Origin: Balanoglossus misakiensis
Lineage: Eukaryota > Animalia > Hemichordata
Length of the DNA: 64,000 nt
NCBI GenBank assembly: GCA_040954595.2
Contig: CM082579.2
Span: 1,501,908-1,565,907, forward strand
Direction: 5' to 3'
The number at the start of each line of letters is the position of its first letter. The first letter of the stretch is position 1. Both the position numbers and the translations under genes were made by a program. Below the pieces are notes generated by a model, which was not told the origin of the DNA, did not search any database, and saw only the letters and a program-made list of their open reading frames with translations. Below, one piece after another: positions 6,795 to 41,500 of this stretch.

Positions 6795-9700
6795 ATGATG
6801 GAGCTGTCATCATCTACGTTGGAGCTGGTACCTCCAAGCTACGCCAACAGCCCGAATTTGCCAGTGCGGGGAATCAGCTCTCAGCTGAACGCGTACACAC
6901 ACGCATCGAAACGCTCCCCGTCTGTCATATCGGGGATAAGCAGTATACCCCTGCAGTTGTTCAGCGAGGGAAACAGACTCACGAGCAAGGAGAGATCTTT
7001 TCTAGAAGCGGCCGAGAAAGGAGACAAGGCAACCATACAGAGATGTCTGATGTCACCAGACCCGGTCAACGTCAATGTGGCTAATATTCTCGGCCGGAGT
7101 GCGTTGCAGATGGCCGTCGACAACGAAAACATCGAAATTGTTGAAATCCTGCTTGCACAGCCGAACGTTAAAATTGGCGATGCCTTGTTGTATGCAATCA
7201 GAGAGGGGGTGTACAAAATGGTAGAGATGATGGTGAACCACCCGAGCATCAGCCGGGAGATGCTGGGAGGAGAATGGAGCAAGATGACGAAAGGGCCAAT
7301 GGAGGAAAGTAGCGATTATTCGCCGGACATATCACCGGTCATATTGGCCGCTCACTGCAATCAGTTTGAGATTCTGCAGCTTCTGTTGACCCGTGGTGCT
7401 ACCATATCTCGGCCTCACACCGTCACGTGCAGTTGCGAGACATGCACGGCCAAACAGCACGAGGACAGTTTGCGTCACTCGCTGCACCGCATCAACACCT
7501 ACAAGTCCCTGGCCAGCCCAGCCTGGATCTCCCTCACCAGCAGTGACCCCATCCTGTCGGCGTTCAAGCTGAGCTGGGAGCTGGAACACCTGGCCATGAG
7601 GGAGAACGAATTCAAGGACGTCTATCAGGAACTGAGCAGCCAGTGTAAAACTTACGCCGTCGATCTGTTGGATCAGTGCCGCAGCTCCGAAGAAGTCATC
7701 GCCGTGCTGAACCGAGAAAACGACCCCGAAGACGAGTACGCCGAAGATGACGTCATGGCCGGGAAAATAACACTTTCTCGACTAAAATTGGCCTTGAAGT
7801 ACGAACAGAAACAGGTGGGTTGAGGCGTGAAACAGAATTATGATGTCAACCCATGCAGAGATGGAAATCACGCACTAATGACATAAAAACCTAAAACAAC
7901 GTTACAATTACGTAGTTTGAGGAACGTTTGACATCACTAATGGAATTTAATTGATTGAACTTAGTTCCTAAGTGCTATTTAAATTTAACAAATTTCTTCC
8001 TGTCCAGATATAATGAGAACAGACATGAATAGACTCTCTTATTCGTATGGTCAAAACTGAGCGCATACCATCAGGTCACCTTTGGGTAGTTGGATTAAAC
8101 TTACTCATAAAAACAAAAGTAACCCGCTAATGTCTGTTTTTTTCTTTTAGTTCGTCGCACACGCGCACACACAGCAACTTCTGACGTCGATATGGTACGA
8201 AGGATTACCCGGTTGGCGAAAACACAACGGATTTGTCAAACTTCTCATCTGTCTGGCGGTCATCATTCTCTTGCCTTTCATGGCAATCTATTATCTATTC
8301 TTTCCGCGAACCAAAGTAGGGCAGCTGCTCAGGACACCCTTTATGAAGTTCATGAATCACAGCATATCGTTTGGATTTTTCTTGCTCCTATTGGTGCTCG
8401 CCTCAACTGTGCGACTTCCGCCGTCCAATGATTTTTCGCCGGAGAATTACGAAGGAAGTCCACGAGGCCGGGAACCAAACGCCATTGAAATTTTAATAGC
8501 ATTTTGGGTTTTCGGTGAGTATTAAGTTGATGTTATAATTAATTAATGGATGGATCGATGAATAGATGTATATACGTATGTATTCATGTAATGTAGTCAT
8601 GAAAGTCTAACATTCTTCGTAGATGGATTTATATCAGTTGTCCTTAAAATCACACTACTTCAGAAATTCTTTACTATTCAACATAAAGTTGATAACATGC
8701 CGGCGGTCTTAAAGCACTGCATTTATTTTTTATAAACCCCATATCTCTTTTTACCAATCTCGGCATTTCGTACATCCTAGGGGGTCCCAAGGTCTATGGT
8801 TGTTAACAGCTTCTTCAGTTGATTAGGAGAAGAATCGCTAAAGTCTGATATTTCTATACCGACAAGATCAGACTCGCCGAAAGTAAATCTCATCCTCATT
8901 TATTCCCAATGGCCTTCCTGCGCTTTCGAACGGCTATTGACGTACGACAAAAGAGCGAAAAATGACCCGTAAAATTGACGGCGAGAGAAACGAATGAGTG
9001 TGAAAATCGATCACATCCCGGGATTTAACTGCCAGCTATGAAACTGATGGGGAAATTTATCCGCTGCGGTCGATACAATAAATGCAAGATGCTTTGCCTG
9101 AAAATGTTCAAGTTAGTTCTGGGTCACAATCATTACCCGAAAAGATAGAAAGGCTGACTATATCTTACTGAAGTAGCAGTCATCAATAAAAATTGTTTGT
9201 CATAATCCACGATAGGATCTTCTCCTTCTATATTAAGCAACTTCGCGTCCATGTGAGTTTCTTTCTGTTCAAAACCGACTTACAAATACTGTGGTTGATT
9301 TTCAGGTTTTATTTGGGGCGAGTGCAAACAACTATGGGAGGAGGGACTGAAGGCTTACATCAGACAGTGGTGGAATTGGTTAGACTTTATCATGCTGTCG
9401 CTGTACCTCTGCACGATATCGCTGCGGTTTGCCGCCTGGTGGCTAAGAGGCTCTGGCAAATACCCGGACCTGCGAAACAGCGAACAGCAGAGAACCAGTT
9501 GGCCCGGAGACGACCCGACTCTGATATCAGAGGGCGTGTTTGCAGTCGCTAATGTTTTTAGCTTCTTTCGTATCATTTACCTGTTCCAAGCGAACCCGTA
9601 TCTGGGACCGTTGCAGATCTCCTTGGGATGCATGCTGATTGACATTGCCAAATTCTTGTTCATATTTTTCTTGGTGTTGCTCTCGTTCGCCTGTGGACTG

Positions 9701-12700
9701 AACCAGCTTTACTGGTATCATGAATCGTCCATCCGTGATTCTGACGACACCTGTGACGTCAGCTCTCGACCGACCGTCTTTCTCAGGTACAGGCTAATCA
9801 TTTCTGTAGATGTTTTATTTTGTATGTGTTTCCGCTCTTTATTTTAACCGCAGCACAAACGGTGATTCCGTTTTGATAGGGGGTCATTATGGTTCAAATC
9901 AGACTTTTTTACCATTCATTACACAAAATTGAAACAAAGAGAATCTTTACCTTAATGAACTTCTGCCACGCATCTGGCAAGTGTTGTCAGGTGTAATGTT
10001 GGTGTTGCCTGTAAAAAATGAAGTATCTTGGTTATCATCCAAAAAAATCCCACTGTGACTATGACCCAAAAACTGGCTGGATAATTTGCCAGTTTGTTAT
10101 CGAAATAATTTGACATAGCCTAAAGTAACACCGCATTATATCTATATTGTGATCGTCAATCGAAATTCAATGTTCTAAGTTGAATGTTCTGGGTTGAAAA
10201 TCAAGTGCTACTTACTGCCAAAGTGGTACTAAAATGTGTACGTAATATGCTTGAAATTTTTAAGTTTTTGAAGAATTAGAGTTTATTGCCGAATCGCATG
10301 ACATCTTAATATTACAACCCCGAGTGAACGCAAAGAAAGCACGAAAAAAGGGTGGAAAAGTATGGTTTCATTTCGCTTTAAGTTCACTGACCGCACACCT
10401 GGGTCAACAATGCTCACCTATTAATTGTGCAGCTGTGTACACCTGGTCCTTACACCACCTGTTCCGTTCATGTCATGCGCTTTTTCAGTCTGGACAGTAC
10501 GATGCAGACGTTATTCTGGGCATTGTTTGGTCTGGTGAACATTGATGTCATCAGGCTTCAGATCCGAGGTCACCAGTACACAGAAACAGTCGGGGAGGCA
10601 TTACTGGCTGCCTACCACGTGGCATCCATTATCGTATTACTTAACATGTTGATAGCTATGATGAGTAACTCCTACCAAGAAATAGAGGTATAGTCGGGCT
10701 TTAGAACAGAAGGGAAAAAATAGACCAAATGTATCATTTATTAACGTTTCGTATGTTCCACACGAGAAGACAGTATGTTGAAAGATTTTTTTACACTGAA
10801 TTGTACCAATCTTCTGCAGAGATTAGCATGAAGCGGTCGTTTGGGCTTCCAATGCGGAAGACGGACACACTCATTAAAATATGGCCAATGAGATTAATCG
10901 TCTATCACATGGAAAAACAGACGGGAATATGATACATTTGGTCAAAAATAACTGTCCCTCTTTACATCAAGTCATTAAAAGCATTATCAGATAGAAGCTC
11001 AGACTATTAATGACTCAATCTCGAATGCGAGTGAATGGTGAATAAGACAATTGATGCTACATATCATAACAGGGACATTTAAAAAGCGTTAATGACAAGA
11101 ATTGATTATTATTAGTGGCTAAATTTTATATTATTGGAGATAATATGGATTATTTGTAAACGCCTCGTATTGTTAGGTCACCCAATAAATTATCCTGCAA
11201 AGGCATTATTGGGAAAGAATGAATAACAAAATCTCATTTACTTAATGATTCAAGCAATTTTCTCTTGTCTGTTCATATCTATCTGATACTGGTTTTGGTG
11301 ACCTGGTTACAAGTAGCTGTGAATACACAGCTCTACTGAGGCGGTGTATTAATATGACGTGTGTAAGGTCATTTTTTCCTGCTTACTGACCTTATACATG
11401 CCATAATACATAACTCCACCAGAGATGCATGTTCACAGCTAGGTTGGCAGTGGATTATTTTACACGTGCGTGGCTGTTGTATATCACGCCCTATGTGCTT
11501 GCTCATTAGTTTGACAGACACCTGCGTTACCTTGTTCTGGGCAGTATTCGGGATGGTGAAGCGTGATATGACCCAAATGGCTAACAACCTGGCCTTCACA
11601 CAGAGCATTGGTCAACTACTGTTGCTCCTCTGGAGTATGGCGTCGGTCATTGTACTTATCAATATGCTGATAGCCATGATGAGCCAGTCGTATCAACACA
11701 TCCAGGTAGGCGTGCTTGCAGAATATCCAACCAATCTAGGGGGTCTGTTAAGACCACCTAGCACCAAGAAGCGTGTCATTTAATAACCTCCGACCTAGGG
11801 AGTTTCAAATCCAAAACTATTCTACGTTATTAAAGCTGTACTGACTCTCTTTTCTTTAACGTAATAGTTCAATGAAGAGGGCCTGTAAAGAAGTTCCGTA
11901 AAGCATTGAGCTAGATTACACTTTCTAGGCAGATTTTCTGGGGGAAAAATGAAAGTCCTTTGGCCCTTTACAATCATTGGCTAAATAAGGTATACCCAGT
12001 CAATCTTTTTCCCCAAAAGGCTTAAGGGTATTCGTTATCTTGTTTTGAAGATAACCAAGTCTCCACTGTTTCGGTTTCCTCCATAAATTTTGCGGCAATT
12101 TGCCAGAAGGAAAATGTGAATGCACTTGTTCAAGAGTACATTATTTATGGACAATAAAGTAGACAACTAGATCGATCCATTTCCTGACATGACACTTCAT
12201 TGTCGATATTGTTAATTACTTCAGTATTGTTAATTGCTGAATTTTTCTTTTGATGAGCTGACAGAAATAAGAGTCAGTAAAGCTTTAAGTGGACACAAAC
12301 AATGGCACCACCCAGGGTATTATGTTAAGCATCAGTTTCCCTTGAGATGTTTGACTCAAGGAAAAATATCATATTGCAAAAAAATGAACATTTATGACAA
12401 GTTTAAGACAATGACAAAAGGAGGCATATTCTGCAAGCACACCTATTACTATCTGGAGCTCGAACCCAGGGTTTGTCAATGTTTATGTTCCTTGTCTTGT
12501 ACCATAATGTATCTCTTGTTATGAAAAGTGTGCATGCTCTTATTTTGTGTTATGTTTTATATTTAATAACTGTAATGTAGTGCTCCACAATTCAATATTT
12601 GACGTGACTTTTTGTAATAAAAAGAATAAAGAATGCTGCATAAATTATAGATGGCCACTTACCTCATTATATATCCACAGGACACGGCAATCTAAAAATC

Positions 12701-14089
12701 TGTTGCACTGTTAAAGCAATGATCTTAAAATCACAAAACATATATTTATCATTATATGTAAACATTTTGTTAAGACAACTACCTCTATACCCTAGTGTCT
12801 ACGCTGACGGAATATATTACTCCCCAAACAGGACCATGCAGACAGAGAATGGAAATTCGCCCGCACTAAACTCTGGATGAGTTACTTTGATGAGGGATCA
12901 ACTCTGCCTCCCCCCTTCAATCTGATCATCAGTCCCAAATCTATTGTATACTTCTTCAAGGCAATTAAAAGGATTATGTGTGGAAAATGTGAGAAGACAA
13001 AAAAATCCAAACCACAGCGTCAATCCTTAGAAGGCTCAATTAAGGTGAGACACATTTGTTATTTTCATGATACACCATCTATGATGCAATGTATGTAAAT
13101 TGTAAGAAGAATTAATCATTATGATGAATTTTGTTAAACAATATTACAGTAACTTCAAGGTAAGCCTGCATGCAGCAGCTGCCATTTGCAAGCTTTTTTC
13201 CCTAGGAACATAAATCTCTTCTAACAAGCTTCATGTTCATAAATCCTGTTTTAATGCTCACACAAATCAGTAAAGATCCCATTATAGAGTTTAAGCCTGC
13301 CAAAGCTGCTGGGTTAGCATTAACTTGGAAACACTACCTTCTTGAATGACTGAACCAAGTGTTCACTTTAAGAAAACCCCAAAATCTTCCCACAGAAAAC
13401 TCATCAAAGTAATGATGGTATGATTGGGCCCAACTTGCAGAAAAACACCAAATATCAAGATGTTATGAAAAGACTGGTCAGTCGCTACATACATCAACGA
13501 AAAGCCGAACAGAAGGAGGATGGTGTCAATGAAGATGACCTTAATGAAATTAAACAAGATATATCAAGTTTGAGGTAAGCTTGTAGAAAAGGAGCAGAGT
13601 TCATTAAAATCTTATGTTAAGCAATATACATTGCTTTATCAGATGTGCACCAGTTTGGTATTTCAGTTATATCATAGGATTGTAGTTCATAGGATGTAGT
13701 TCATAATGTCTAATATGTTGTTTTCTCCTGCCTATATCACCAGATATGAACTGCGAGAAGACAGGAAGAAAGAGCAGATGAGGGGAACATCACAGATTGA
13801 AAATGTGAAACAGGAAATCATTGGTGAACTGCGAGGGATTGGACAGACACCAGATGGTACACCTGTGACCACCACACCACCCAATCTACTGATGACAGCA
13901 CCACAGGTACCACTTACACCAACTGATATGCAGTTCCTGAAAGATGACATCATCGATGCTGTTCGCAACGAGGTGAAATCCGAGCTGCTTGATGTTCTGA
14001 GGGACGTTCTGCAGAAACCTGGAAGCAAGAACTTTGTGCCTCCCACAAGTGGTGAACTCTACCACACTCACTTGTACACACAATTGTGA
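6795..14089 (+). CDS. TRPC: Canonical transient receptor potential (TRPC) cation channel, spliced, ~933 aa (exon A isoform) or ~932 aa (exon B isoform)
   Basis: Exons 6795-7814, 8151-8514, 9306-9786, [10489-10687 OR 11510-11705], 12832-13044, 13396-13574, 13744-14089, all GT-AG and phase-compatible. Motifs: ankyrin repeats ([47 protein letters not shown]), Zn-site [21 protein letters not shown]|[24 protein letters not shown] pore helix, LNMLIAMMS gate, TRP box [30 protein letters not shown] coiled coil. Kozak gccATG. Confidence 0.96.
10489..10687 (+). CDS. TRPC: TRPC pore/S6 exon A (mutually exclusive)
   Basis: Acceptor ctttttcag, donor GAG|gtatag, 199 nt. Encodes (S)[66 protein letters not shown]. 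Confidence 0.93.
11314..11441. repeat. Imperfect inverted repeat (~128-nt hairpin) just upstream of TRPC exon B
   Basis: tatgacgtgtgtaaggtca (11353-11371) pairs with tgaccttatacatgccata (11387-11405). tgtatt (11345-50) pairs with aataca (11405-10). tagctgtgaat (11314-24) pairs with gttcacagcta (11431-41). Confidence 0.75.
11510..11705 (+). CDS. TRPC: TRPC pore/S6 exon B (mutually exclusive alternative to exon A)
   Basis: Acceptor gcttgctcattag, donor CAG|gtaggc, 196 nt, same entry (2) and exit (0) phases as exon A. Encodes (S)[65 protein letters not shown]. Confidence 0.88.
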
Positions 14090-17000: not shown

Positions 17001-18544
17001 AAAATACAATACATCAATAATTACAAAAGGTCTCATGTATCAGAAAAGTAGAACACAGAAATAGGAATACACACAACTTACCTTTTCTATCTGTGAAACT
17101 AAAACTAAAATTATAAATTAGAGAAGAACTTGGTTTATGTGAAAGAAAACAGCAGTTGAATAAACAATGCATGGTGGCAACAAACACAGGTAAGTTTCTA
17201 TAAATACATGTTACCACTTAGGGATATTGATGAATACATTACAGAACAAAAGCTCATATGAAAAACCTGGCTTATTTCAGTGTTGGGAAATTATTTTATA
17301 ATTTAATTTGGAATTTGATTTCAACAGCCAATTTCTTTGCGACAGGCTTACATTTTCATTATGTGGACACAGACAAAGCAAATTTGAACAAGTAAAGTGA
17401 ACCCCGTGTTTAAAACACACGACTGATTTGATATCCAGTGTTGTCTACAATGTGCATTAAGCGCGATCTAGACCAACTTGTAGCCACTGGCAGAAAATCT
17501 AAGGTTTGAAACAGAATGTTTGATTTATGTGAACACAATGCGCTGCTACTACACTATGCACAAATCATGTGACTAAACAGTTGTCTGGAACCAGAAAGCA
17601 GTTATCACACATAACAATAAAAGAACTAAACTCGCTCTCTAAAGATCTCTTCACACACAATTTCCAGGAATGAGGGTTCGAAGTAAAACTGATACACATT
17701 TCAAATGTCAATCTAGATCGCGATCAATTTCTTCTCACCCTTCAAAATGTAACGTATTGCTGTTAGGTTTAATAGATTTGATAAGCTTCATCCCAGCTCA
17801 CTATAAATAATTGGGTTCATTTCATTTTTTGCCGCACCTTCGCTTGGGGAAATTACAGCTTACTCTAAATTGGACCTTGGATTAATATTTCGCTTGATTG
17901 TTGTGGCACTGAGGAGCTACACAGTACACAGTTTCTGTCTTCATGCAACTTATTTTTTTAAGGTTGTGTGTTACATCACTGATTATTCTCATTGTAGGAT
18001 GTTTTTCTGTCAAGTTTCATGTGACACGCACTACAAACTAATGGCAATAAACACTTCTTGTATTCAGATCACTTCAATGACAAATTCCAGGATGCAATTT
18101 AACACTCCAAAGTGGTGGGTGTGAATTTAGCATTCAACCTAGTATTGAGTTAATAATCCTCTTTTAATAGACCCTTCAATTTGATTTCTCCTAACAGCAA
18201 TGCATTTTCCTTCTTCAAAATATGTGAACGATTACTGCAATTTGAGTTGACAAAATTTTGAAAGGTGTAAAATATTCATTCCCCAAGTAGTTGACACGCT
18301 ACAGTGCTGCCTTTCATAGTACTGACTGACAATTATCTATTTCAGAAAGGTCTTCCAAAGAGCAGTGAACTGAAGCTGTAGGCCCCTGAAACTTAAATCC
18401 TGAAACCCCAAATCATTATTATAAATAAATAAGGGCTTTAACCATCTATACAGAACATATTTTAAAAAGATTGTTGAGGTTATCAGTCAAACTACAGTAT
18501 TGTCAAAAATGTTCAGCACTGGAGTGCTGATTTGTAGGCTACTT

Positions 18545-21500
18545 TCAACTCAGGCTAAATTTCTGGATTTCTTTGAGCATTGTTGCATTGTAGGTTTTGA
18601 AGTTCCATTGCTGACCTGGTTCTTGCTTGTTGCATGTTGATGTGACCACATCTTCACCATCTTTTCGGCCATCCATACACTTGTTTGACACTGGATGGTA
18701 TATCAGGCCTGAGTCCTGAGAGAGGGAGGTAGAGAGGTCGAGAATATAAATGATGTCATCTAATGCAGGTATCATTGTATTTATATGCAAATTAAGGCAA
18801 GTCATTTGGGTGTTACTCTTTCTTATGTAAATCAAGAGCCCGTTCTTATGTAAATCAACCTGTCATTTCATCACCTGAACATGCACAAGTAAAGGCCATG
18901 GGCATATAAAAAAAAATCCAAAACAGATGGTCGAATTCAGCGTGTGCCTGCCTGCAGCAATTTGCAAGATATCATGTTCATATTTCAAATTCAATGGGTG
19001 TGGTTCAAATTGCTAGGTGAGGTCTGCCCTGCTGATATTCCATCTGTCAGCTGTTTAAAATTTAAAACTCGCATCTTTTCAGTGTCATAAACTAACAGCG
19101 ACTGGCAGAATCAAATTATGATGGATTTCATCAACTTGAAATTTGGATCAGGTTGCTTCTCTCGTAACTACAGAGTTTAATGATGACTTACATGATAGTA
19201 GATCCAATGTTGGTTTCCCTTCGCTCCGTGACAAGGATAGAATGTGACGGGTGTACCTTCATTTGACCCAGCTGCATCCAAACAGTTTTTACTCGGACCT
19301 GGTCTAAGGTCAACGTGCCAAGTCATTTCAAAATACTATATAAGAAACAAACAGTGATTATCTTCATTGGGTTTTAACCTTGGGAGTGAAGCCATTAAAT
19401 TTCAGAGGTTGGCCATGCCATAAAATGCGCAACTGATGAAAGAGAGAGACAGATTCCATACCTGAAAACTTTTTGGCGAATTACTGTCTGGTTTACATTT
19501 TTTGAGTTTCACTTTACTGCCTTCGCGTGCACCCATGCCATCTAGACAAAGACCTCGTCCAATATTTTTGAGCTGTAGTGTGAGATACATGTATATGTAA
19601 GACAACATTTTAACCACAGTGGCCCATGAGCCAAATTTGTTGGCTGAATTGACAAAACAGGACGGAAACAATTCAGCAATGAAACATCAGTAAAATTACA
19701 TCAGAAATTGATAGTAGTTCTCATAACAAGGTATAGCTATCCCTGGGACTGTTAACTGTTCACAAATGGTACATGGAGAAATTTAAAAAACAGAATGAGG
19801 GGTTTCTTAGGGGTTTGAAAAATAACTTACTTCTCCCCATGCATATGATGGCGGTTCAACAGGTGGATAATATTTCAGTATATCCGGTGCTATTTCCGTC
19901 AAATACCACTTAAAACTTTTGCAATTTAATCGTTTCTTGAGTTCCAGCTGAGCACTGATGTCTCCAAAGCTCTGTCCCCTCAGATGGGGACGTCTTTTAT
20001 AAAAATACTCCTTATACTCATCCATCCATACTTCAACAACTCTCATTAGATTCTGTGACAGCAGAGGAAATAGAAAAAAAAAGATCAATGATAGAATACT
20101 TTGCCGATCAGTCGCAGATGTGGAATCATTGTTATAATGAGGTTTTGTAGGCAGAGGTTTGAAGCAGCATAAAGACACGAAGAACTGCATGTTCATGTAA
20201 TCTATTCCATTTTTGAGATATTACGCTTGAAGGAACAGCTAACTCTAAAATATCAAAGCCATCTTTTAATATGAATATAGACAGGACTAGAGCTGCAAGC
20301 AAAATACTGAGTCTCTCTCCTCATCCAGAATCTCCTGATAATTACTTGTGTAACAAAATCTCACATGGGAACAAGAAATTCTACACTGTGTGATTTTTCA
20401 GGATGTTGCAGTCATGTATTGTAGAACTGGACACCCTTGTGAGAAATTAAGAATAATTTCAATTATCAGATTTACCGCGTTTGTAGAGCCAGGCCCAGAA
20501 GGGAAAGAATAAGGTGAAAATTTTCTGTAAATATGTCCCACTCTTGAGCAAGGAACATCTTCCATAATCCCACCACACATCCAGACCTGCAAAAAAAAAT
20601 TAATATGCTATAAATAAACAACAAATAAATATGCATGTTCAGTTTGTTCTTTACAGAAGATGCATCTGGTAACGCTTTTCATATGTAGCAAATTTCGTAG
20701 TCTGAGCTTCTCAAGACAAATTTTAACATCTCTTCTCCTGGGTAACACTGGTTGACAAAAGTGCTTTTGAGATGGTCATAAGACTCTCATTTATTTCCAT
20801 TTAGTTCTTTTCAGCTAGACAGCATTTGACTTGCCTAGTGATAATGTTTTCCTTTCAATCCATCTCACTGGCATCATCTCAGACCAAGAAACTAAAGAGA
20901 TCATTCAATGAACTGAATAAAATAGACGCCACCAGTATCAAAACACTTCTAACACCTGTGGTTCTTGCATACAACATGTGTGCACAGTTTTCTCACAACC
21001 TTTGTGGATGATTCCACTTTATTGGACCGAGAGGGGTGTTCTCATTAAGTCTCACCGTACCTTGAATGACAGATCATACTGCTCTCCTCCCCAGATTTCC
21101 AATCCTGCGTCATATCCGCCAATTTCACTGAAGTACAAGCGATCAACAGCAAAGAGACCCCCAGCCATTATAGGTGACCTGCATTTTTGTGAAAAGGGAA
21201 AAGAATTGTAATTCTACATGTTCCATATGATGGCTGTGTTCCAAACTCCCCATCTAATATCTAACCCTTTCACCCCTGTTTAAAACAATGGGAATGGACC
21301 AAGTTAAGGTGGCGAGAGGAAGATTGGATTCCTGAGAATGACAGTCAGGAAATGACGCAGACAGACATCTTGCCTGCAGACACAGATTATTTCTGTTCAC
21401 AAAAGACGGATCATTATGGGATTTATTAAATGCAGGAAGCATGGGGGGGGGGGTACCGTTGAAGAAAAAATTAAAGTAATCTACTCATGATTCTGTGATA

Positions 21501-24500
21501 TATTCTGGATTGTGCACAGTCGTTTTGGAAACTGAAAAGAAATGGTGAATTTCTTACTGACATGTTTTGCAGTAAACTACTGATTAAATGGACAAGACAG
21601 ATCATGAACTTTGGAGAGGATATTGCCATGACAACAACAGTAGAATGAAATGTGCAAGCCAAATTTACGAGTACGATGTATTTGTCAAATTTGTTTTTTG
21701 GAGATTGGGCAGATAGTATTACACCAACTGATCAAGTATTGAATTTATAGAAGTGCATATTTCCTTCTACAAGCAAACAAGAAGTTATATGACTTCAACA
21801 CTTAATGTCATTAGTGTTTGCAACAGATCAGCATATTCCAATACTTGACACTTCTGATTTCAGACTCCTCGAGGCTACATCTACTATTGACCTTTTCATG
21901 AACTAGTGTGAGTGTTAAGGCAAGACACAGCTGCTGCAATATATTGTAATCTCCTGAAATGTGAGACATCCGCAGCACTTTCACTGAACAATATTTTCCC
22001 GGAACTGTTCAGATTCTTGTCCTCCATTGCAAGTTTTCTTTGCTTGGCATGGGGACTCTTGTTACCATGCCAACAGCATCAATGCATGCAGATTTAAGCA
22101 TATCAGAATATCTGATTGGTCAATTCCATTGAAAATTGCTTCAAACACCCATCGTTACTGATCTATCTGAAAACACCTTCAAAAATTGAACTGAGAGGAA
22201 ATTCTCGTGAGAATTTAAGTGAAAATCTGAAGTAAAGTGGTTGAGTTAATGCCAGGCGATTTGAAGGTTAAAGAACACCATGGAACACAATACAGGCGCC
22301 CTTTTATAATGTGATATTTATTGATTATAAACTTACATAAACGGCTCAGATGGATGACCTCGCCTCCTCTGTTCAGCCTCATTTATTGGAATTCTTTTGT
22401 AGTACAACTCCCAATCAAAAGCTCCCCTCATGGCATCGCCTGCCTGCGTCTCGTAGTGGAAATCATTGCTGCCAATCACATCAATCATTGGGCACGCAAC
22501 ACAGCGACGGTTTAACGCAATTCTCTCTGAAAGAAACGTCCAAATGCAATGTTTATTGTGGTGGTGGGTCATGTGTACAGTGATACTTTATTGACATCTC
22601 AGAATCTTGGTACAACAGAATATTCCAATTGTGGTAGTAATAAGGGAATACATCACTGATAATTGACCTTGAAAAGTGAAGCAGATTAATTTCAATTTTG
22701 TGTCTTAAAGAATACACATCAGGACTGCTGGCAGAAAGCTGGAAATCAATGGTTGTCAGGATACCCTGTGACAGCAGTGTGAGTGATTGTAGAGTTGAAA
22801 GGAATGAAGACGAATGATTTACTATATTGAAATACACAGCATTGTCGTGACTTGCAGCCATCACAAAGTGGAGAAGTTTTAGAGTATGGCATTAGCCAGG
22901 GAATCATAAAATTGGGCTGTGATGGCGCTGTTGCAAACCAGGACATGGTTGAAGTTCCGTGTCCATACATGTCAGAAATATACTGAAAAAGAGCAATTCT
23001 CCTAGTCCTCAGAGTAGCATGTTACTCTGTCAAATAAACAGAGTTTTCTTGATAAGGGACTGATTTCTCTTTAAACAGTAGAACCAAATAGTCTAAGTGA
23101 AAAAAATACTGGTAAAATAGTAAAGTGAGTCAGATGAAAGATGCATTATTTAAGTTTGCCCGAGAGATATTCAAAATTTGTAGTTTTCAAGGTTGTAAGC
23201 ATAATTCATGTAAACCTTGGAACAACAAAGTAAGTCAGATGAATAAGGGTTTATAGCAAGACTCCATCTACTGACAAGATTTGAAGCCAAAATGAGAGAC
23301 GCCTGCAGGTACAGAACTGATGGAAATCTCCAAGTAGATCAACAACAATCTGTCTTGCTAAAGAAGTGCCTTGGAGTCATGGATAATGTCATGCACAGAG
23401 GGAGATACCTCGTTCCTGACATGCGACAAGATGAATCCATTTTTCTGTAGGGAGTCAAGGTGGTGATGCATGAGTTTCACTCTGAGGGACCATGTTGTGG
23501 TTGTACGCTTTCATGGAGAATTCTGCAGTGTGTCTGGGGTGTATGGGAGGGGTTGTGCTTACCTAATAAAGGTGGCAGCCAATTTACATTGCATTCACAG
23601 TGAGAGTCCAGAAATATCAAAACTTCTCCCCTTGCCCGATCAGCTCCCAGCAGCCGTGTTCTTATCAAGCCTTCCCGTTTCGCTGCCCGGATCAGCCTTA
23701 CTTTGGGAAGTCTTGCCATGTAATCTTCAACTGGTTTTTTGCATTCCTCTGGCAGATGTAACATTAAAATAAATAAAAGGAACTGAGTAGATTAGTCCCA
23801 TGAGCCTGATGACAATGTAGGTAGCTGCATTTGCTCAACAGGTGTACATTAACAACTGAAACGCCAAGATGTCTGCTTCCCCAGAGCTGACACAAAGTCA
23901 CCACGAAAACGATGCATTTCCCAAGGGCCATAAAACATCATTAATGGTTCTGAGTGAGTTGAAACTTTGAAATGGATAAAGGATGCAAAATCCAACTCTG
24001 CATCACAAAACTATGACATTTTCTTGGGGTGTCTGTGTGTCAGCCACAACCATCTCTGTCCCTTACCGTGATCACTGAAGTCATCAACCAATATGATTTC
24101 ATGCAGCAGTTCCGGTGGCGACCGGTTGAGGAGGCTGTGTACAGTACGCTGCAGGATTGAGAGAGCTTCATTGTGGAAGGGTATGACGATGCTGGCGTTT
24201 GGCAGTTTGCTGAAATACTTCAGGGTTTTACACCTGGGAGAAAGAGTTTGCAGAGAGCTGTGATTTGTTGAAATACAGCAACAGTGTAGACTGAAATTGG
24301 CATATTACCACTAGAATTCGAACATAAGTTCAGTTAGCAGCTCACAAGCAGGCTTGGTGACAGTGACTAGAAGCCGATGTCGTTGGGACTTCGAATTTCT
24401 CAAAATATTTGAGACATTTTGACATCTTCTATTCTGTTATTTATAGAACTCGTTAATTTCCTGCTATCCAGATTAAAGGATTTTAATCTCATGCCATCAG

Positions 24501-26188
24501 GTTACCTTGGATCACGGATATCTGGTATGGCTCTGTCAATGGATATGACGTCACTGATGTGCCTATTGAAGCCATGCTTGGAAAAATCTTCTCTCTCCCT
24601 CTGTTTTTCTTCTGGGCTCAGAATGTATGGCTTTCCCTGCTCACCAGGACCTGGGGATTAAATGCAATGTTAGCATAATTCAATATATTTCCATAATTTC
24701 TGGGGTGTTTTCAAAATCTTTTTCTAAAGTGAATCCTCTGATACTCTATGCATAAGTAGGATTAGAATTGGAAACACCACATACTGTACTTCATGACAAA
24801 GCATTACCTGAAACCTCCTGGGTCTCAGTTTTGAAAACACATTTTCATGAATAAACAGTGATAAATCGATATTTTAAAGATTATCACAGGCAGGTAGCTT
24901 CCATTAAAATATGGGTTTATTTATTTATTCATTCTATTCATTTTCTAATGCAATAACAGTCAGTTGAACAAACACTAATGCATACAGCTAGACAAAGCAC
25001 TCTGGGTAACAGATGTGGAAGCTGTATTTAAATGCAATTCTTGTTCAAACATTTCCAGCGAGTCAGAAAAGCTTCTTATTACTCTGGGCAGTTTTATTAT
25101 AGCTGGTTATTACAGAAAACCAACTGCTGTCAATGTTGATAACATTTTCAGTACATGTATTTTTTATTCTGTGCAGCAACGACAATTTCTTGTTCAACTT
25201 GCTAAAGCATGACAACTTTTGGTTGTACCTGCTCGGTCAATATGCTTTCCCCTCCCCTTCTCCCTCCCTCCCTTTCTTACTCACTCACTCACTCTCTAAC
25301 TCACTCACTCACTCACTCACTCACTCACTCACTCACTCACTCACTCACTCTCTAACTCACTCACTCACTCACTCACTCACTCACTCACTCACTCACTCAC
25401 TCACTCACTCACTCACTCACTCACTCACTCACTCACTCACTCACTCACTCACTCTCTAACTCACTCACTCACTCACCTTGCCTCTGAGCATCAGCCTGTA
25501 TTTGTTTGTAATCATGCCAGTCACGTTTGGGCACTTTGCTGTAATCTACACCATTTCCAGAATCCGAGAGGACATCAGGATCGACAGGTGCAACTGCTGC
25601 AAAGCCTTTTACTTCAATGCCATTGTCCTGTGTACAAAGAGTGAAAGAATAAAAATCAACTCATACTATCAACCCATCGCAGCAGTAATTATACAGTTGA
25701 TTTTGTTTTACTTTATGCACTCCATTTTATCATTCATATTTTGTGCATTTTGCTGAGCAGGTTATATAAACATTTTTCCATCTGATCTTGTCAGTGTTCA
25801 GTTGGGTTGTCATGGAAACAGAGCATTTTAATAGAGATGATAATGCATGTATCTGATTGAGAATTATGTTGCCATGGCATTTAGTTATCGTCTCTTGTTG
25901 AAAATTTTGCCTGGGAGTCATAATTCCATGCTGACGTGATTCCAAAGTATATTCTGAGAAAAAAAAAAGATATTAGAGAGAGAAGGACATGTAACTCTCT
26001 CTCTCTATACTGACTATGGTTCTTCATACTTTTACCTGTGAATTTATCCCACGATCAACGTTCTTTCCCTTTGCTGGGTCAAATGGTATTCCAAATGGAG
26101 AAGACCACAACAGGAACACTGGAATCAGCATCAACAGCACGCCAATTAAAACCACATATCTGAGAAGAATTCGTGTGGACCACCGCAT
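18545..26188 (-). CDS. GALNT10: Polypeptide N-acetylgalactosaminyltransferase, GALNT10/GALNTL6-like, 12 coding exons, ~622 aa
   Basis: Exons (minus) 26188-26036, 25627-25477, 24650-24506, 24233-24067, 23748-23563, 22526-22337, 21178-21061, 20586-20476, 20052-19831, 19572-19462, 19335-19192, 18715-18545; total 1869 nt. Type II TM anchor ([18 protein letters not shown]), [44 protein letters not shown] motif [48 protein letters not shown], ricin-type lectin repeats ([19 protein letters not shown]). Confidence 0.93.
25279..25476 (-). repeat. (GTGA)n/(TCAC)n microsatellite, ~200 nt with three TCTCTAAC interruptions, starting exactly at a GALNT splice donor
   Basis: Read directly. The minus strand reads AAG|GTGAGTGAGTGAGT... 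from the exon end at 25477. Confidence 0.97.
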
Positions 26189-30395: not shown

Positions 30396-33309
30396 CTATA
30401 GCGATGGTATGGACTGTGGCGGTTCAATTAGGGAAACTTGGAGAAGCCTGTAAAAGTAAGAAGAAAAGTTGTTAAACATTTTGCCAAAAGAGTGTCCATC
30501 ATGAAATCAACGATTTCACATTATCTGAAGACACTCAGACACTTGGGTTACACTCTTCCATGTTTAAAATCTTGTCACACATTTCCAATAAAAGGCCATG
30601 AAACAATGTATTTACAAACTTCTCTACCCTCCTAATTGACTTACTTTGGGCTCTTGTATTTTTCTCTGACAGCTTGTTGTGGGTGAGTGGTTGAGTTGAC
30701 AAACGTACTGTGCAAGTCCCTGACACACTGGTGGATATCTGCATAGCTGTATTCACTGTAATGTTCTAATGTTGGAGTCTGGAAAGAAAAAAGTACATGT
30801 ATTTAGAAGGATACGCAATATTGTGTTATTGTGAAAGTTCAGTTTTTCTGTAAAAGACATTTTTTTATAGTGTACGCTTCTCAAGTTCAATTACAACAAG
30901 AATGGCCCAATAGCAAATGACGGTCAAACTCACCCAGTGTTGGAGATTCAGGGTGTGATTGGCTAGACAAACTGATGCTGCTGCTATCAGTGATGGTGCA
31001 TAACGAATGTACGGTTCATACTCTTGAAGTGTCAACTCAGCCAAGAACTGGAAGAAAAAATGTCAACCATGTAAATAAAATTGTTCTTTCAGCCAGGCTA
31101 CGAGGTTTCATAACTCACCCAATTTAAAAAAGCACCCATTCATCTAGTGGGGAAAAATGAATACATCACACTACTTGCTTTCATCAAAAATTCACATTCC
31201 CGTTTTCATAGATATTTTGGCCAAAATGGGATAGTATGTTCATTTATACCCCTTTTACAATTGTTCTTCAGCTGTAATGGGGATTTTTTTTAATGTATTT
31301 ACCCTTGCTAGTTGTTCCGTTTTGCCATCAGCCTGGGCTGCTCTTAAGTAACGATTGAGGAATGCATTGATGGTGGGAATTGCCAGATCAAAAGATAGTA
31401 CTTTCAAGATAAGATGTTCCATACGCAGCACTTGTTTCTTTGAGTAGGTATCGTCTGTGATGTAGACAAACTCGCCAACCTCAGGTGGGTAGATTTCTTC
31501 AAATTTACTGCAGAAAAAGAAAAAAGGGAGAAAAGATTAGATTCTTTTCTGAAAGCCAAGTTTAGTCTAGACTTCTGGTTCCTCCAAACAAGGACAAATA
31601 AGAGAAAGATGAAAAGTAAGTTCACGTACGCTGCCAGGAACATACTAGCTGCACCAACCAGCTGCAGTTTACTCCTAAGAACACTCATCGCTGACAGAAA
31701 TCTATCAATGTAATTGATGGCTAGGTAGAGCGTTTCGTTGTGTAGTTTGTATTCTTCTGCGACTTCGACCAACCAATCGACCAGTATGCATCTCATGCTT
31801 GATGTTATATCTGGTTGTTTCTTCATGTAGCTTGCTTTGGGCTTGTTTCTCGTCTGGCAATAAAAACAAAGTCAGATCATTTCAACAAGAGATTATAATG
31901 CCTCAAGTCACTTGCAGAAATGTGCATGCAATCTAAAGGAGGGCGCACTTTAGAGCTGTCAACCAATCACTTATCAGACTTGGCAACTTGGTGGCAGCAA
32001 CAACTTGGTGGCAGCAACAATTGGCATTGTTTATGTCACTGTAAAGTAGAAAAAATCGACTCACCTCTGCTTCTTTAAGGTATTCATAGATGTCCTTTGC
32101 GTATTCACTAACATAGATTTCAGTTTCTGCTGGCCCGTCTAATTCAAGTATTCTTGACGTTTCACATATTTGATCTGAAGACGTGTCCAGAATCATAGGC
32201 GACTCCCCTAAAATGAAATGATCAGGTCTGACAGTCAGCGTGCGATCTGAAGTACTAGTAAATTATAATAAATTTGCAACAATTGAGTAGCAATTTCTAT
32301 TGTTCAATAACGACCGCGTCATACCCAGTGGAGGCGCGTACTTTTAAAACTCCCAGAGGAAAAAAAAAAAACTTATATAAAAACTTGAATTACTATAAAA
32401 CCTGCTGAATATGCGTGAACCAAGTTTGCAGACGAAAGCAAGTCAGCTTGTCAAAACACCTGTTGTGTACGACTCTTTTGTTCTCTGAACATGTGCATAC
32501 CAGGTACAACATGCACCGAAATTTGCGTATCTGGATATGTGAATATGGAAAGACCAAGGCCAGTCGACAGTAAAAATTGTGTTTCTACCGCAAAAAAACG
32601 ACTTTGTAAGCATTTCAGCATTTACTCGTGACTGATTTTAAGAAATACATTGCTTCTTACAAGTTTCAACATCTTATCACTATGAATTCTTTCAACATTA
32701 CATTTGATGTCATTATATTGAAACAATACCTGAAGATTCGTCTAGACTGAAAACATCTGGCCGTATTGATAAAGCTCCTGTGACCGATGGGTTCAGCTGT
32801 AAGCCGTCTACGTGATCTGCTCCCCTCGATGAAGATGATTTTTCGCCGGAGTCGATGTGTACTGAAAACCCTTGTTGTGAAACAGCTGTGTTTATAGCAA
32901 AACTGCCCTTTCCCGCCCTTGGTTCATTTTCTCCTTGTACAGAACCGAAAAATCCCTCCGAAGACGAAGCCTAATAAAAAGAGTAAAAAGGGAAAAATGT
33001 ACATGTATAACTTTCAATTCTATTTTATCAGCAAGTTTGTGTGCATAATGCAATTTGCTTTTCAAATATTGCTTTGTGTGAGACAAATGAGACACTGACC
33101 TTTGCCGCGCGGAACGGTTGGACCCTCGTTGAATTGCCTACTATTGTTCCTAATGCTGCTCGTTTGTTGGCTTGTGGAGCGATATTTCGGGTTTGACCGT
33201 CATCTCTTTTGGTTTTCCTTATTCCGGGAATTTGGTTTTCGAAGCCGGTTCTTGCTGCATTGGTGAGAATTCCGCTCGTGCCCGTGTTGGATCCACTGAA
33301 ATAGGACAT
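30396..33309 (-). CDS. CCNA: Cyclin A, 8 coding exons, ~440 aa
   Basis: Exons (minus) 33309-33100, 32970-32730, 32207-32065, 31853-31630, 31507-31303, 31047-30934, 30778-30645, 30447-30396; total 1323 nt. D-box [49 protein letters not shown], cyclin box [49 protein letters not shown]. Confidence 0.97.
31984..32020. repeat. 17-bp tandem duplication (CAACTTGGTGGCAGCAA x2) in a cyclin A intron
   Basis: Read directly. Confidence 0.8.
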
Positions 33310-38530: not shown

Positions 38531-41500
38531 TCACTGATTTCCTCCATTGACATCATTCTCTTCAGCATTCTCCTGCTGTCCGTTCTTCAAATCTTCAATG
38601 CCCTTCTCCACACTGTCCAGTTTGAGTCTGAAGAAATCCAGTGAGTTGGCACTGCTGAGTTTCCGCCTCTGGGTCTCAGTCTTCACATGTGTCCACATGG
38701 CCTTGTTTGCGATCACTGCATCGTCCAGTGGTTTGGCTTCTGGTATTATCTGGCCAAGCAGTCTGATGGTCAAGAAAATCCCCCATGTTACTCATCATGC
38801 TACAATATTGCATTGCTGGTTAACAATGTCCTATTTTTTCATAACGACAGACAAAGCTCACACATCAGAATATAACAATTTTCACTTACTGAAACACAGG
38901 ATGAGCAATGTGATTCAAGAAACTGAGTTGCAGTTCTGGAATACAAGCCTTCTCTCGATCCATCATTTCTAACGGACGGTTTCCCATTGCTTTTTCCTGT
39001 AAAAGATTTGGAACAAGTAATGGGTTAAGTAATATACCCAGTGGCTACTGTCACTTGTGTATGAAAGAAGATGTTACCTTTGCTGATTTTTTGTATTCTC
39101 TGATATTGGAGTAGCAGTAGTACTTGTTTTTTCCCCCTTGAACATATCTGTGTTAAAATTTATCTCCCAAAACCCTGTAACATTTTCATCACAGCCAGGG
39201 TATGATGAGTGTAAATAAATCATCCTCTGACTGTAGTCTGATATCAGCATTTTATCGTTATATTTCTTTAACTCTCACATCAACAGATTATGTAGCTTAT
39301 GTACAATGCTCTACTCTACTAGCTTAGAGATTTTTCAAAACTTGACATACAAATGTCTGTGAAAGAACATCAGAAAAGATATCAAATTGTCATACCAGAT
39401 CACCCTGGCTGAAGAATTCTTGATAGATGAGTTCCTGTAAAGAGAAATGCAAAGCCATATTCTTACAAATTTGACGGAACATGATTTTAAATGTTTTATG
39501 TATAAGGCTTTCCAGGGTTTCATGTCACACTGACAGGATACCTAGTAGACTTACGGATGTCATGATTGAAACTGAAGGTAACAATGGTTATGCAGGTAAT
39601 TTTTAATATTGTGATTCTCCAAGTGCTTAAATTTGATAGTAGCACTCAGACAAAAAGCATTCCCTAGAAATCAATTTGCAGTCAGATTCCAGGAAGAATA
39701 CTAAATGGAAATCAACGATAAGCATTTGAGTGTTCTATTGGATGTTACACTTACCGCTATCTTCTTGATGGTTTTCCAGCTTTTGGTTTGATCAGAAAGA
39801 TCACAGGAAGTCATGAGTAAACATATTAACAGCTTGTGACATTTAGGATCATCCTTGTTGTATCCCTCTGTAATAGAAGATCAAAGTACGGTTTGAAATA
39901 TCTTCTATGCATTTCTTGCATTTACATGACGTGACCATCCTCTTACTTTATCCTTGATTCTGTCACTCCTTACAACCCCCTCTCTAAGCTGTTAATCTTG
40001 ACAACCTGTGCAACTAACCATCTCTCTCTTTCCTCTCCTTTTCTCTACACCTGTCTACAAGCATGCCATCTTTGTTGTCTTGCATGTTACACACCAAAGA
40101 GAATGACACACATACTTGCAGTCACACATATTCAGATACATACACACAATGGGGCACACACATTAACTATAACAGACCACACCCACCTTCAGCCATCTTC
40201 TGCAAATCTGTGATAATCCGAAGATGATGAGCCAAGTCAGTGGCCAGAATGATATCTTGCATCAAATCTAACACTTCTTGGTATTCCTACAGAAGAAAGC
40301 AAACATGTTTTGATGAAATCTTTACAGTTTTCTTTTTATTTCTTCATATTCAAGGATGGAGAAAGAAAAGCATTGTGAACCCTGTCTGTGATGATCTTTC
40401 TTCCGTACCTTCAGATCATTCAACACAAAAGGCAGTCTGATTCTTAGCCTGGGACACCATGTCCAGCTCCATTGAAAACTAGTGTCATTACTTTCACAAT
40501 GCAATGCACTCAATACTGCACGGTGTACACCCCAAGAGGGCAGGTGTTTGAAGTTTTCTTTCTTGAATATTGCTCAATTCAGTCGTCATTTTTTATGCAA
40601 TGCCACTTCAATTTGACAGCCATGTTTTAACCACAGCTGACTGACTTTCAAACAACACAGTCAAATCAATTGAAGTGGGTCAGTTGAATAAATACAGATG
40701 TTATACAAAAGCAAAGCAATCAACTCAACATGATTTACATCTCCAACATCAATGTTTACATAAGAACACCTTGAGGCTAGTACACTCTGTTCCTTTCAGG
40801 AAATTTATATTTCCACTGTGCATTTGCCACATTTGATCAAATTTGTGATTTATTATCAGATAGTAAACATTAGCTGCAGAGAAAGGATTCATTCATATTC
40901 TATTCTGACAGAGGTAAAAAGAAATAAATTATGATAATTACTAAAACATGCATCACTCATGCAATAATGGTTATTATATTATACAAGTATATTGATGGTG
41001 TAAATCACGCTATTTGATTGGTCGAGACACGACACGTGACCGTGATATATTAGCCATATACCACAGTCATATATCATAGTCAAAGAAAATGCCTTTTTAA
41101 AATGTTTTATGCAAAGTTTCAATATACTGGCATAATATAATAGCAATAAAACACCCCAGCCATGTTATACCACTCGATTTTGACCAGTTCAACTCCATAT
41201 ACGCACTCGCTATCGCTCGTGCGTATATGTCGTGAACTGGTCAAAATCTCGTGGTATACCATGGCTGGGGGTGCTTTATTGCTTAAATGAATTTTCAGGA
41301 GTCCACTGACATGAAAGTGTTGGATGCGATAAACAAATCGCTGCAGGCCAAAAGTAAAATTGCATGTTGTTTCTCGACAGTCTTTTGATATGTTAAAAAG
41401 GATGATTTAAGGTGGTAAATGGTCAGGCTGACATTCTGACCTATCTAGGCATGAATTCACAAACTAACAACCTCAGATGAATAACCAACCGGCTGTGGCA

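Follow-up and report, generated by a model that had tools for sequence, protein, structure and literature searches.

The TRP-1-Type Gene of the Window

The sequence analysed was a 64,000-nt window of Balanoglossus misakiensis (GCA_040954595.2, contig CM082579.2, positions 1,501,908–1,565,907, forward strand), and positions are counted from its first letter. Judged by its sequence, the gene described here encodes a TRPC channel of the TRP-1 type, with all coding exons on the + strand. Coding exon 1 (6795..7814) specifies the N-terminus, the ankyrin repeats and TRP_2, with 323 of 340 residues identical to Ptychodera flava, and is followed by coding exon 2 (8151..8514; pre-S1, S1 and the start of S2; 114/121) and coding exon 3 (9306..9786; S2–S5 and the turret; 148/161), whose donor is common to two pore exons. 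These are pore exon A (10489..10687) and pore exon B (11510..11705), each encoding pore helix, filter, outer loop and S6, with 60/66 residues identical to the P. flava isoform X1 and 59/65 to the isoform X2, respectively. The acceptor common to A and B belongs to the TRP-box exon (12832..13044; 67/71), after which come a coding exon for the connecting helix region (13396..13574; 59/60) and the last coding exon (13744..14089; coiled coil, C-terminus and stop; 85/114). The resulting seven-exon model gave a complete ORF of 933 aa with A and of 932 aa with B. Pfam matches were found in exon 1 to Ank_2 (E 3e-11) and TRP_2 (E 1e-28), and on exon 3, A and B to Ion_trans; the LFW pore helix and the EWKFAR TRP box were both present. 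Overall, the gene was 92% identical to P. flava and 80–83% to Saccoglossus and Glandiceps, and the P. flava X1 protein matched TRPC5 with an E value of 5e-211.

In a tree built without the pore cassette, the gene grouped with C. elegans TRP-1 and Limulus trp-1-like in a clade of 16 of the 19 rows (support 100/100), the outgroups being vertebrate TRPC4/5-type rows and one Owenia paralogue, with no TRPC3/6/7 or Drosophila TRP/TRPL rows. An earlier cassette-free tree placed 23 of 27 rows in the TRP-1 clade, with five rows of that set not passing the motif filter. The TRP-1 subfamily is known mainly from C. elegans, and a role in proprioception has been reported for trp-1 and trp-2 of that species (PMC6010301).

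Two Homologous Pore Exons

The initial annotation had described two homologous exons with the same phases, intact AG/GT sites and no stops, and its coordinates, phases and splice dinucleotides were all confirmed. The exon 3 donor at 9786 reads AG/GTACAG; exon A comprises 199 nt and 66 whole codons (flanks AG...GTATAG), exon B 196 nt and 65 whole codons (flanks AG...GTAGGC), and both have the same phases and are stop-free in the reading frame of the gene. When aligned, A and B were identical at 32/66 positions, with a local score of 157, where the best of 5000 shuffles scored 61. The suggestion that shared residues often use different synonymous codons also held, since the codon differs at 20 of the 32 identical residues; the synonymous distance was saturated (pS 0.87), with a pN of 0.37. 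A profile of 54 pore cassettes run over the six frames of the window returned two matches only (E 1e-30 and 2e-26, the next being 0.54), and tblastn with P. flava and Limulus proteins found no other exon of the gene occurring twice in the window. Taken together, these two results point to a single-exon duplication and not to a gene duplication or an assembly repeat.

Two RefSeq isoforms are predicted for P. flava, X1 (XP_070554377.1) with A and X2 (XP_070554378.1) with B, which are identical elsewhere and are two members of one protein cluster. Transcript alignments usually lie behind RefSeq X-isoforms. Exons A and B were each 91% identical to P. flava, compared with 92–98% across the five constitutive exons other than the last, which stood at 75%, in agreement with the earlier proposal of an old duplication maintained by selection. 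The B exons of the two species differ by six mostly conservative changes, with no stop and no indel. In a neutral-copy simulation (2000 draws), 59/65 identical residues were reached in 0.7% of draws with 10% of bases changed and in none with 20%, both divergence levels being assumed values. At the protein level, both copies behave as sequences under purifying selection. Exon A matched Saccoglossus at 50/66 and Glandiceps at 53/66 positions, and the single models of both species resemble A. The protein search with exon B gave one match among eight candidates, which was P. flava X2; no B-like cassette was found among 63 shorter proteins, and P. flava was the only species with one among the best 150 of 605 matches, so that B was seen in no third species within the proteins searched. 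Among the titles and abstract openings searched, no account of the P. flava isoform event was found.

Residues Shared and Exchanged in the Pore

Both A and B align to TRPC5 570–631, which contains the LFW pore helix, the filter (581–584) and the lower gate (I621/N625/Q629) (PMC7017149; bioRxiv 10.1101/2024.11.03.621705), and this alignment bears out the claim that the duplicated segment is the entire conduction pathway. The lower-gate positions were I, S and Q in both exons, which weakens the further expectation of different gating. The differences lie elsewhere. At the filter, A reads G-L-V-N and B reads G-M-V-K followed by R, so that positions 584–585 are NI in A and KR in B; in the upper S6, positions 608–609 are Tyr-His in A and Trp-Ser in B. 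Tyr 608 was present in 39/39, His 609 in 37/39 and L579 in 37/39 primary cassettes, and B deviates at all three; additionally, it differs from A at 626 and along the outer loop, which is variable across the whole TRP-1 subfamily. Among 129 distinct cassettes, Trp at the 608 position occurred in one, and Lys at the 584 position in 22, of which 21 were nematode TRP-1.

The N584A exchange is reported to nearly abolish the TRPC5 current (PMC7017149). The idea that B is uniquely calcium-poor through Lys at the position of TRPC5 N584 was dropped, because the same Lys is found in the 21 nematode cassettes. At two positions where P. flava B has acidic residues, B of the window has Gln, and, given this difference and the ordinary standing of Lys 584, the direction of a selectivity change cannot be read from the sequence; the prediction is thus of a functional difference between A and B without a direction. 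An alignment-based model of P. flava X2 had a pLDDT of 75, with pore helix, filter and S6 at 70–91, and matched TRPC5/4/3/6 with E values of about 1e-37 and TM values of 0.5–0.56 by query length. This model was built from a 98-row alignment consisting nearly wholly of other pores, which would favour such a normal-looking pore and lessens its weight for the preferred explanation; the single-sequence fold was set aside (pLDDT 43).

Predicted Splicing of the Pore Exons

With both exons included, a stop arises at codon 707 (11564), and with both skipped at codon 638 (12878); these stops precede the last junction by 531 and 343 nt, respectively. The frame stays open when a single exon, A or B, is used, so that frameshift and decay may act as a safety net against products with both or neither. 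This frame arithmetic, together with the predicted isoforms X1/X2 of P. flava, supports the earlier view that the exons are used one at a time, and A and B likely form an alternatively spliced pore pair, as far as genomic sequence and annotation can tell.

Candidate mechanisms of exclusion were taken from the classes set out in PMC6071210 and PMC5740500. Steric exclusion is described for a donor within about 50 nt of the branch point (PMC5740500). The A–B intron has a length of 822 nt, which rules out a simple clash between the A donor and a B branch point, and the only CTRAC branch-point-like motif near B lies at 11386; folding of the intron could shorten the effective distance between the two. 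Incompatibility of U2 and U12 sites was not indicated: the donors GTACAG, GTATAG and GTAGGC, compared by eye with the U12 consensus, are ordinary GT-AG donors. A docking site with competing selectors next to each exon was sought and not found.

The region between exon 3 and the TRP-box exon (9787–12831) unexpectedly holds four inverted repeats at a BLASTN score of at least 30, a cut-off chosen after a first look at the region; in 200 shuffles the number averaged 0.025 and never exceeded 1. Among 21 tiles of the window counted in the same way, 18 had none, the overlapping tile had 2, and two other tiles had 2 and 1. The strongest predicted duplex of the region (-41.1 kcal/mol, the next being -35.2) pairs a 5' arm that includes the B splice donor (11700..11733, + strand; core 11707–11726, 19/20 pairs) with a 3' arm 700 nt downstream (12419..12458, + strand). 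This predicted stem over the B donor is new here. The 3' arm was without a competing strong partner near exon A, its best other partners being at -18.6 in the A–B intron and at -19.4 in the intron between exon 3 and A, both weak. Nested within the stem is an inverted-repeat element (11830..12288, no strand assigned) with 26-nt arms and TTAA at both outer ends, which is probably a small transposon remnant. Ends of the TA or TTAA kind are typical of small transposons, following the target-site rule. Within the A–B intron, three stem domains were predicted (10723–10943, 10968–11305 and 11314–11441, no strand assigned), the last covering the CTRAC motif, and the predicted folds gave z values of -5.9 and -5.0 (20 shuffles, with regions picked afterwards).

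The predicted stems over the B donor and the branch-point-like motif would fit a default repression of B. Against a regulatory role of the B-donor stem stand the lack of a competing partner, the transposon-like TA or TTAA ends and the absence of strand bias (7 G-U against 9 A-C mismatches), which gives no sign that the stems are selected as RNA. The B-donor stem is possibly itself a transposon remnant, and the two readings can be compatible if a transposon end was co-opted. One arm of the 10723–10943 stem also matched a site at 801 at 14/15 positions with no longer homology, so that a repeat family is not shown by it.

Arthropod Counterparts

The initial annotation had implied that a duplicated pore exon was unique among TRPC genes, which is not supported. 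Limulus cDNAs and RefSeq models of the orthologous gene already document the arrangement, and the surprise of the pair described here is limited by this record. The Limulus polyphemus 'TRPC trp-1-like' splice variants A, B and C (AAN38979–AAN38981, cDNA) are associated with Bandyopadhyay and Payne 2004 (PMID 15525336), and variants B and C differ only within residues 598–660, the pore-helix-to-S6 cassette. The gene is orthologous to that of the window (100/100), and the exchanged cassette has the same boundaries as A and B, although the alternative pores are unrelated beyond family level, B of the window being identical at 25/65 positions to either Limulus type. The Limulus variants were named from cDNA, whereas here the isoforms are predicted in a relative, P. 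flava.

In a homologue search, the arthropod TRP-1 proteins fell into two pore types, and in 4/9 arthropod clusters these types were paired as isoforms of one gene: Limulus B/C with Tachypleus X1/X2, the scorpion Centruroides sculpturatus X1/X2, the crab Eriocheir X2/X3, and two Parasteatoda gene annotations. The five other arthropod clusters showed one pore type among the members listed (15 of 27 and 15 of 23 in two of them). Additionally, a mayfly TRP-1 gene model carries both pore copies in tandem. Two pore types were found in 0/10 non-arthropod TRP-1 clusters, which covered amphioxus, echinoderms, molluscs, a nemertean, an annelid and C. elegans (for Mytilus, 15 of 32 members listed). A literature search of titles and abstract openings, covering few subscription journals, returned no description of duplicated TRPC pore exons, of the hemichordate gene or of convergent duplication of TRP pore exons.

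Proposed Origin and Function of the Pair

The explanation we consider probable is that a TRP-1-type TRPC gene carries tandem conserved pore exons which are likely spliced singly, the resulting subunits being predicted to differ in permeation and in the outer pore more than in the inner gate. Either A or B alone would be joined to exon 3 and to the TRP-box exon, giving subunits identical outside the pore, and nonsense-mediated decay would clear the products of double inclusion and double skipping. Exon A may be the default, ancestral-like pore, and B a regulated alternative, as its donor and its best branch-point-like motif lie within predicted stems. Since all assembly domains are common to both, A and B subunits could co-assemble. 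The duplication would have arisen in the hemichordate/echinoderm lineage, as an event distinct from the one that copied the corresponding exon of this gene in arthropods. What tells against this explanation is that the P. flava isoforms are automatic predictions and that, among the proteins searched, B was found in no species beyond the two named above. The P. flava gene is an orthologue with A in X1 and B in X2, and it differs from the cDNA-based Limulus case in being known from automatic annotation.

The question of one duplication or two was addressed with cassette trees, which have 65 columns and a long branch to B (1.4–1.9 changes per column), features that count against a firm reading of independent origin. 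In the first set, which included a TRPC4/5 outgroup row, B grouped with hemichordate A and echinoderm pores (98/94), and it did so again (96/96) in a revised set, from which 16 rows were dropped (mostly long-branch or near-duplicate), to which seven were added, and in which the two P0322 copies were left out. The hemichordate A rows clustered without B (88/90 and 87/93), which suggests a duplication older than the Saccoglossus–Ptychodera split; on these trees, B would have been lost, or have gone unannotated, in Saccoglossus and Glandiceps. A clade of A and B (p 0.375) and one of arthropod types 1 and 2 (p 0.306) were not rejected, yet neither was recovered in the free tree. It is possible, if on balance unlikely, that a single ancient duplication took place in the bilaterian TRP-1 gene, was retained in arthropods and acorn worms, and elsewhere was lost or went unannotated. 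The orthology of the gene, the equal cassette boundaries and the S6 histidine, missing in 12/12 arthropod type 2 cassettes and in B of both acorn worms, would agree with such an origin. Forcing B and arthropod type 2 into one clade cost 13.6 log-likelihood units, and the AU test gave p 0.032 in the first set, which speaks against it, and p 0.052 in the revised set, just above 0.05 and hence no rejection. The clustering of B with ambulacrarian pores, its equal distance to both Limulus types and the lack of a second pore type among the members listed of the ten non-arthropod clusters are also unfavourable to a single origin, as is the reversed order of the copies, the divergent one coming first in the mayfly model and in a spider-like ORF and second in the window. 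With B placed among hemichordate and echinoderm pores, apart from arthropod type 2, the duplications were probably independent; on these trees, independent duplication is judged the considerably better reading, and the window pair would be a new, probably independent member of the recorded arrangement.

The remaining alternatives concern what B does. It is unlikely that B is spliced and translated but forms a poor channel by itself and instead modifies A channels, damping or reshaping them in mixed tetramers in the way that vertebrate TRPC1 acts on TRPC4/5. The long B branch, the breaks at the near-invariant L579, Y608 and H609 and the rare Trp 608 are in keeping with this, and TRPC1, with its divergent filter, is reported to change heteromer currents (bioRxiv 10.1101/2024.11.03.621705); B, unlike the TRPC1 filter, retains LFW, the filter glycine, N-M-L-I-A-M-M of S6 and the three lower-gate positions. 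That the two isoforms are both produced and show the same conduction, the copies being maintained for expression control or for ligand or lipid sensitivity, is very unlikely: the lower-gate residues and the filter glycine are identical and the outer loop varies subfamily-wide, but 34/66 positions differ, most of these differences hold in P. flava as well as in the window species, and they include 584, the site of the N584A effect on TRPC5 (PMC7017149). Finally, B would be a dead or rarely used pseudo-exon, and X2 of P. flava a homology-driven prediction, only on a highly improbable reading. The Saccoglossus and Glandiceps models without B and the position of the B donor inside a strong predicted stem could be explained in this way, but B has kept 59/65 residues to P. 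flava with no stop or indel while the last coding exon drifted to 75%, and 32 residues are shared with A in spite of a saturated pS.

A wider proposal, which we regard as quite unlikely in its full form, holds that invertebrate TRP genes have a recurrent hotspot of duplication at the pore-S6 exon, struck separately within TRP-1 in arthropods, acorn worms and an echinoderm-like ORF, and that old second copies have lost the S6 histidine; B would then be a spliced equivalent of vertebrate TRPC1, adjusting calcium entry in mixed tetramers, and would be switched on when the transposon-derived donor stem opens.

Comparison with Other Pore Variants

Splicing within a TRP pore alters cation selectivity and ligand sensitivity in TRPM3, whose short and long pore-loop variants differ in selectivity (Oberwinkler 2005, as cited in PMC9886277). 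That case is a precedent for a pore changed by splicing but differs in structure from the tandem exons proposed here, since an alternative 5' splice site lengthens one loop and no pore-plus-S6 exon is duplicated. Mixed tetramers of vertebrate TRPC1 with TRPC4/5 have currents of their own (bioRxiv 10.1101/2024.11.03.621705; PMC7017149) and, with mixed pore loops, offer a functional model for the mixing of A and B; they are nevertheless built from separate genes, and TRPC1, which is reported to have a divergent filter and to alter heteromer currents (bioRxiv 10.1101/2024.11.03.621705), differs over the full length of the protein, the lower gate included. With mutually exclusive exons in general, the window pair shares tandem homologous exons, lengths indivisible by three, as reported for 377 of 629 human clusters (PMC5740500; for the general class also PMC6071210), and a frameshift when both are included, whereas it has one stem over the B donor and no pair of docking site and selector. 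Mutually exclusive pore exons in Drosophila trpm, considered as a possible published parallel, were not borne out by the passages of PMC2865541, in which 'mutually' has 0 occurrences.

If expressed, A and B would amount to a naturally occurring exchange of the pore in which scaffold and lower gate stay the same, and their comparison would isolate the effects of filter mouth, outer loop and upper S6 on TRPC permeation and regulation. Should the pairs of acorn worms and arthropods be of separate origin, this exon of the TRP-1 gene has undergone duplication and retention at least two times, as an instance of convergent isoform evolution.

Tandem pore-S6 copies were also seen in ORFs judged by eye to be TRP/TRPL-like (P0323 and P0352), TRP-gamma-like (P0324, P0326 and Owenia P0105) and NompC-like (P0328, P0336 and P0338). 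An echinoderm-like TRP-1 ORF (P0321) carries two tandem pore copies that are identical at 50/65 positions.

Pore-S6 Exons in Other TRP Channels

Tandem copies of the pore-S6 segment were found in ORFs or gene models retrieved by the homologue searches that were TRP/TRPL-like (P0323 and P0352), TRP-gamma-like (P0324, P0326 and P0105, the last from Owenia) and NompC-like (P0328, P0336 and P0338), these likenesses being assigned by eye. The pore-S6 exon thus seems to have been duplicated in several TRP groups. Two pore copies, identical at 50 of 65 positions, were also present in P0321, an echinoderm-like TRP-1 ORF, where they lie only about 15 codons apart and the intervening stretch is read through; this duplication is a younger, separate event.

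Among arthropods, an insert of 9–15 residues directly before the pore cassette varies among crustacean and spider TRP-1 isoforms (P0124, P0135, P0143, P0169 and P0179) and constitutes an additional, optional turret segment. Several chelicerate TRP-1 genes (P0037, P0062, P0022 and kin) were annotated with only the type 1 or only the type 2 version of the pore, and the two types may have been split between paralogues following gene duplication.

Inverted Repeats and Neighboring Genes

Exon B of the hemichordate TRPC gene is surrounded by a cluster of predicted long-range stems (11700–11733 with 12419–12458, nested 11830–12288, and 10723–11441), one of which covers the splice donor of this exon. 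The stem ends near exon B look like small transposons. Further strong inverted repeats, with scores of 61, 38 and 45, were detected at 40972–41283 and 52786–52944 and are probably small transposons.

Minus-strand exons at about 18500–24300 matched both the glycosyltransferase family 2 domain and the ricin-type lectin domain, and the gene, likely a polypeptide GalNAc-transferase, is arranged tail to tail with the TRPC gene. Also on the minus strand, a Cyclin N-terminal domain was matched at about 31250–31870 in two exons separated by an ordinary short intron, and a cyclic nucleotide phosphodiesterase domain was weakly matched at 41698–41952 (E = 6e-5). A long simple repeat of the tetranucleotide type, at about 25300–25470, reads as an open frame.
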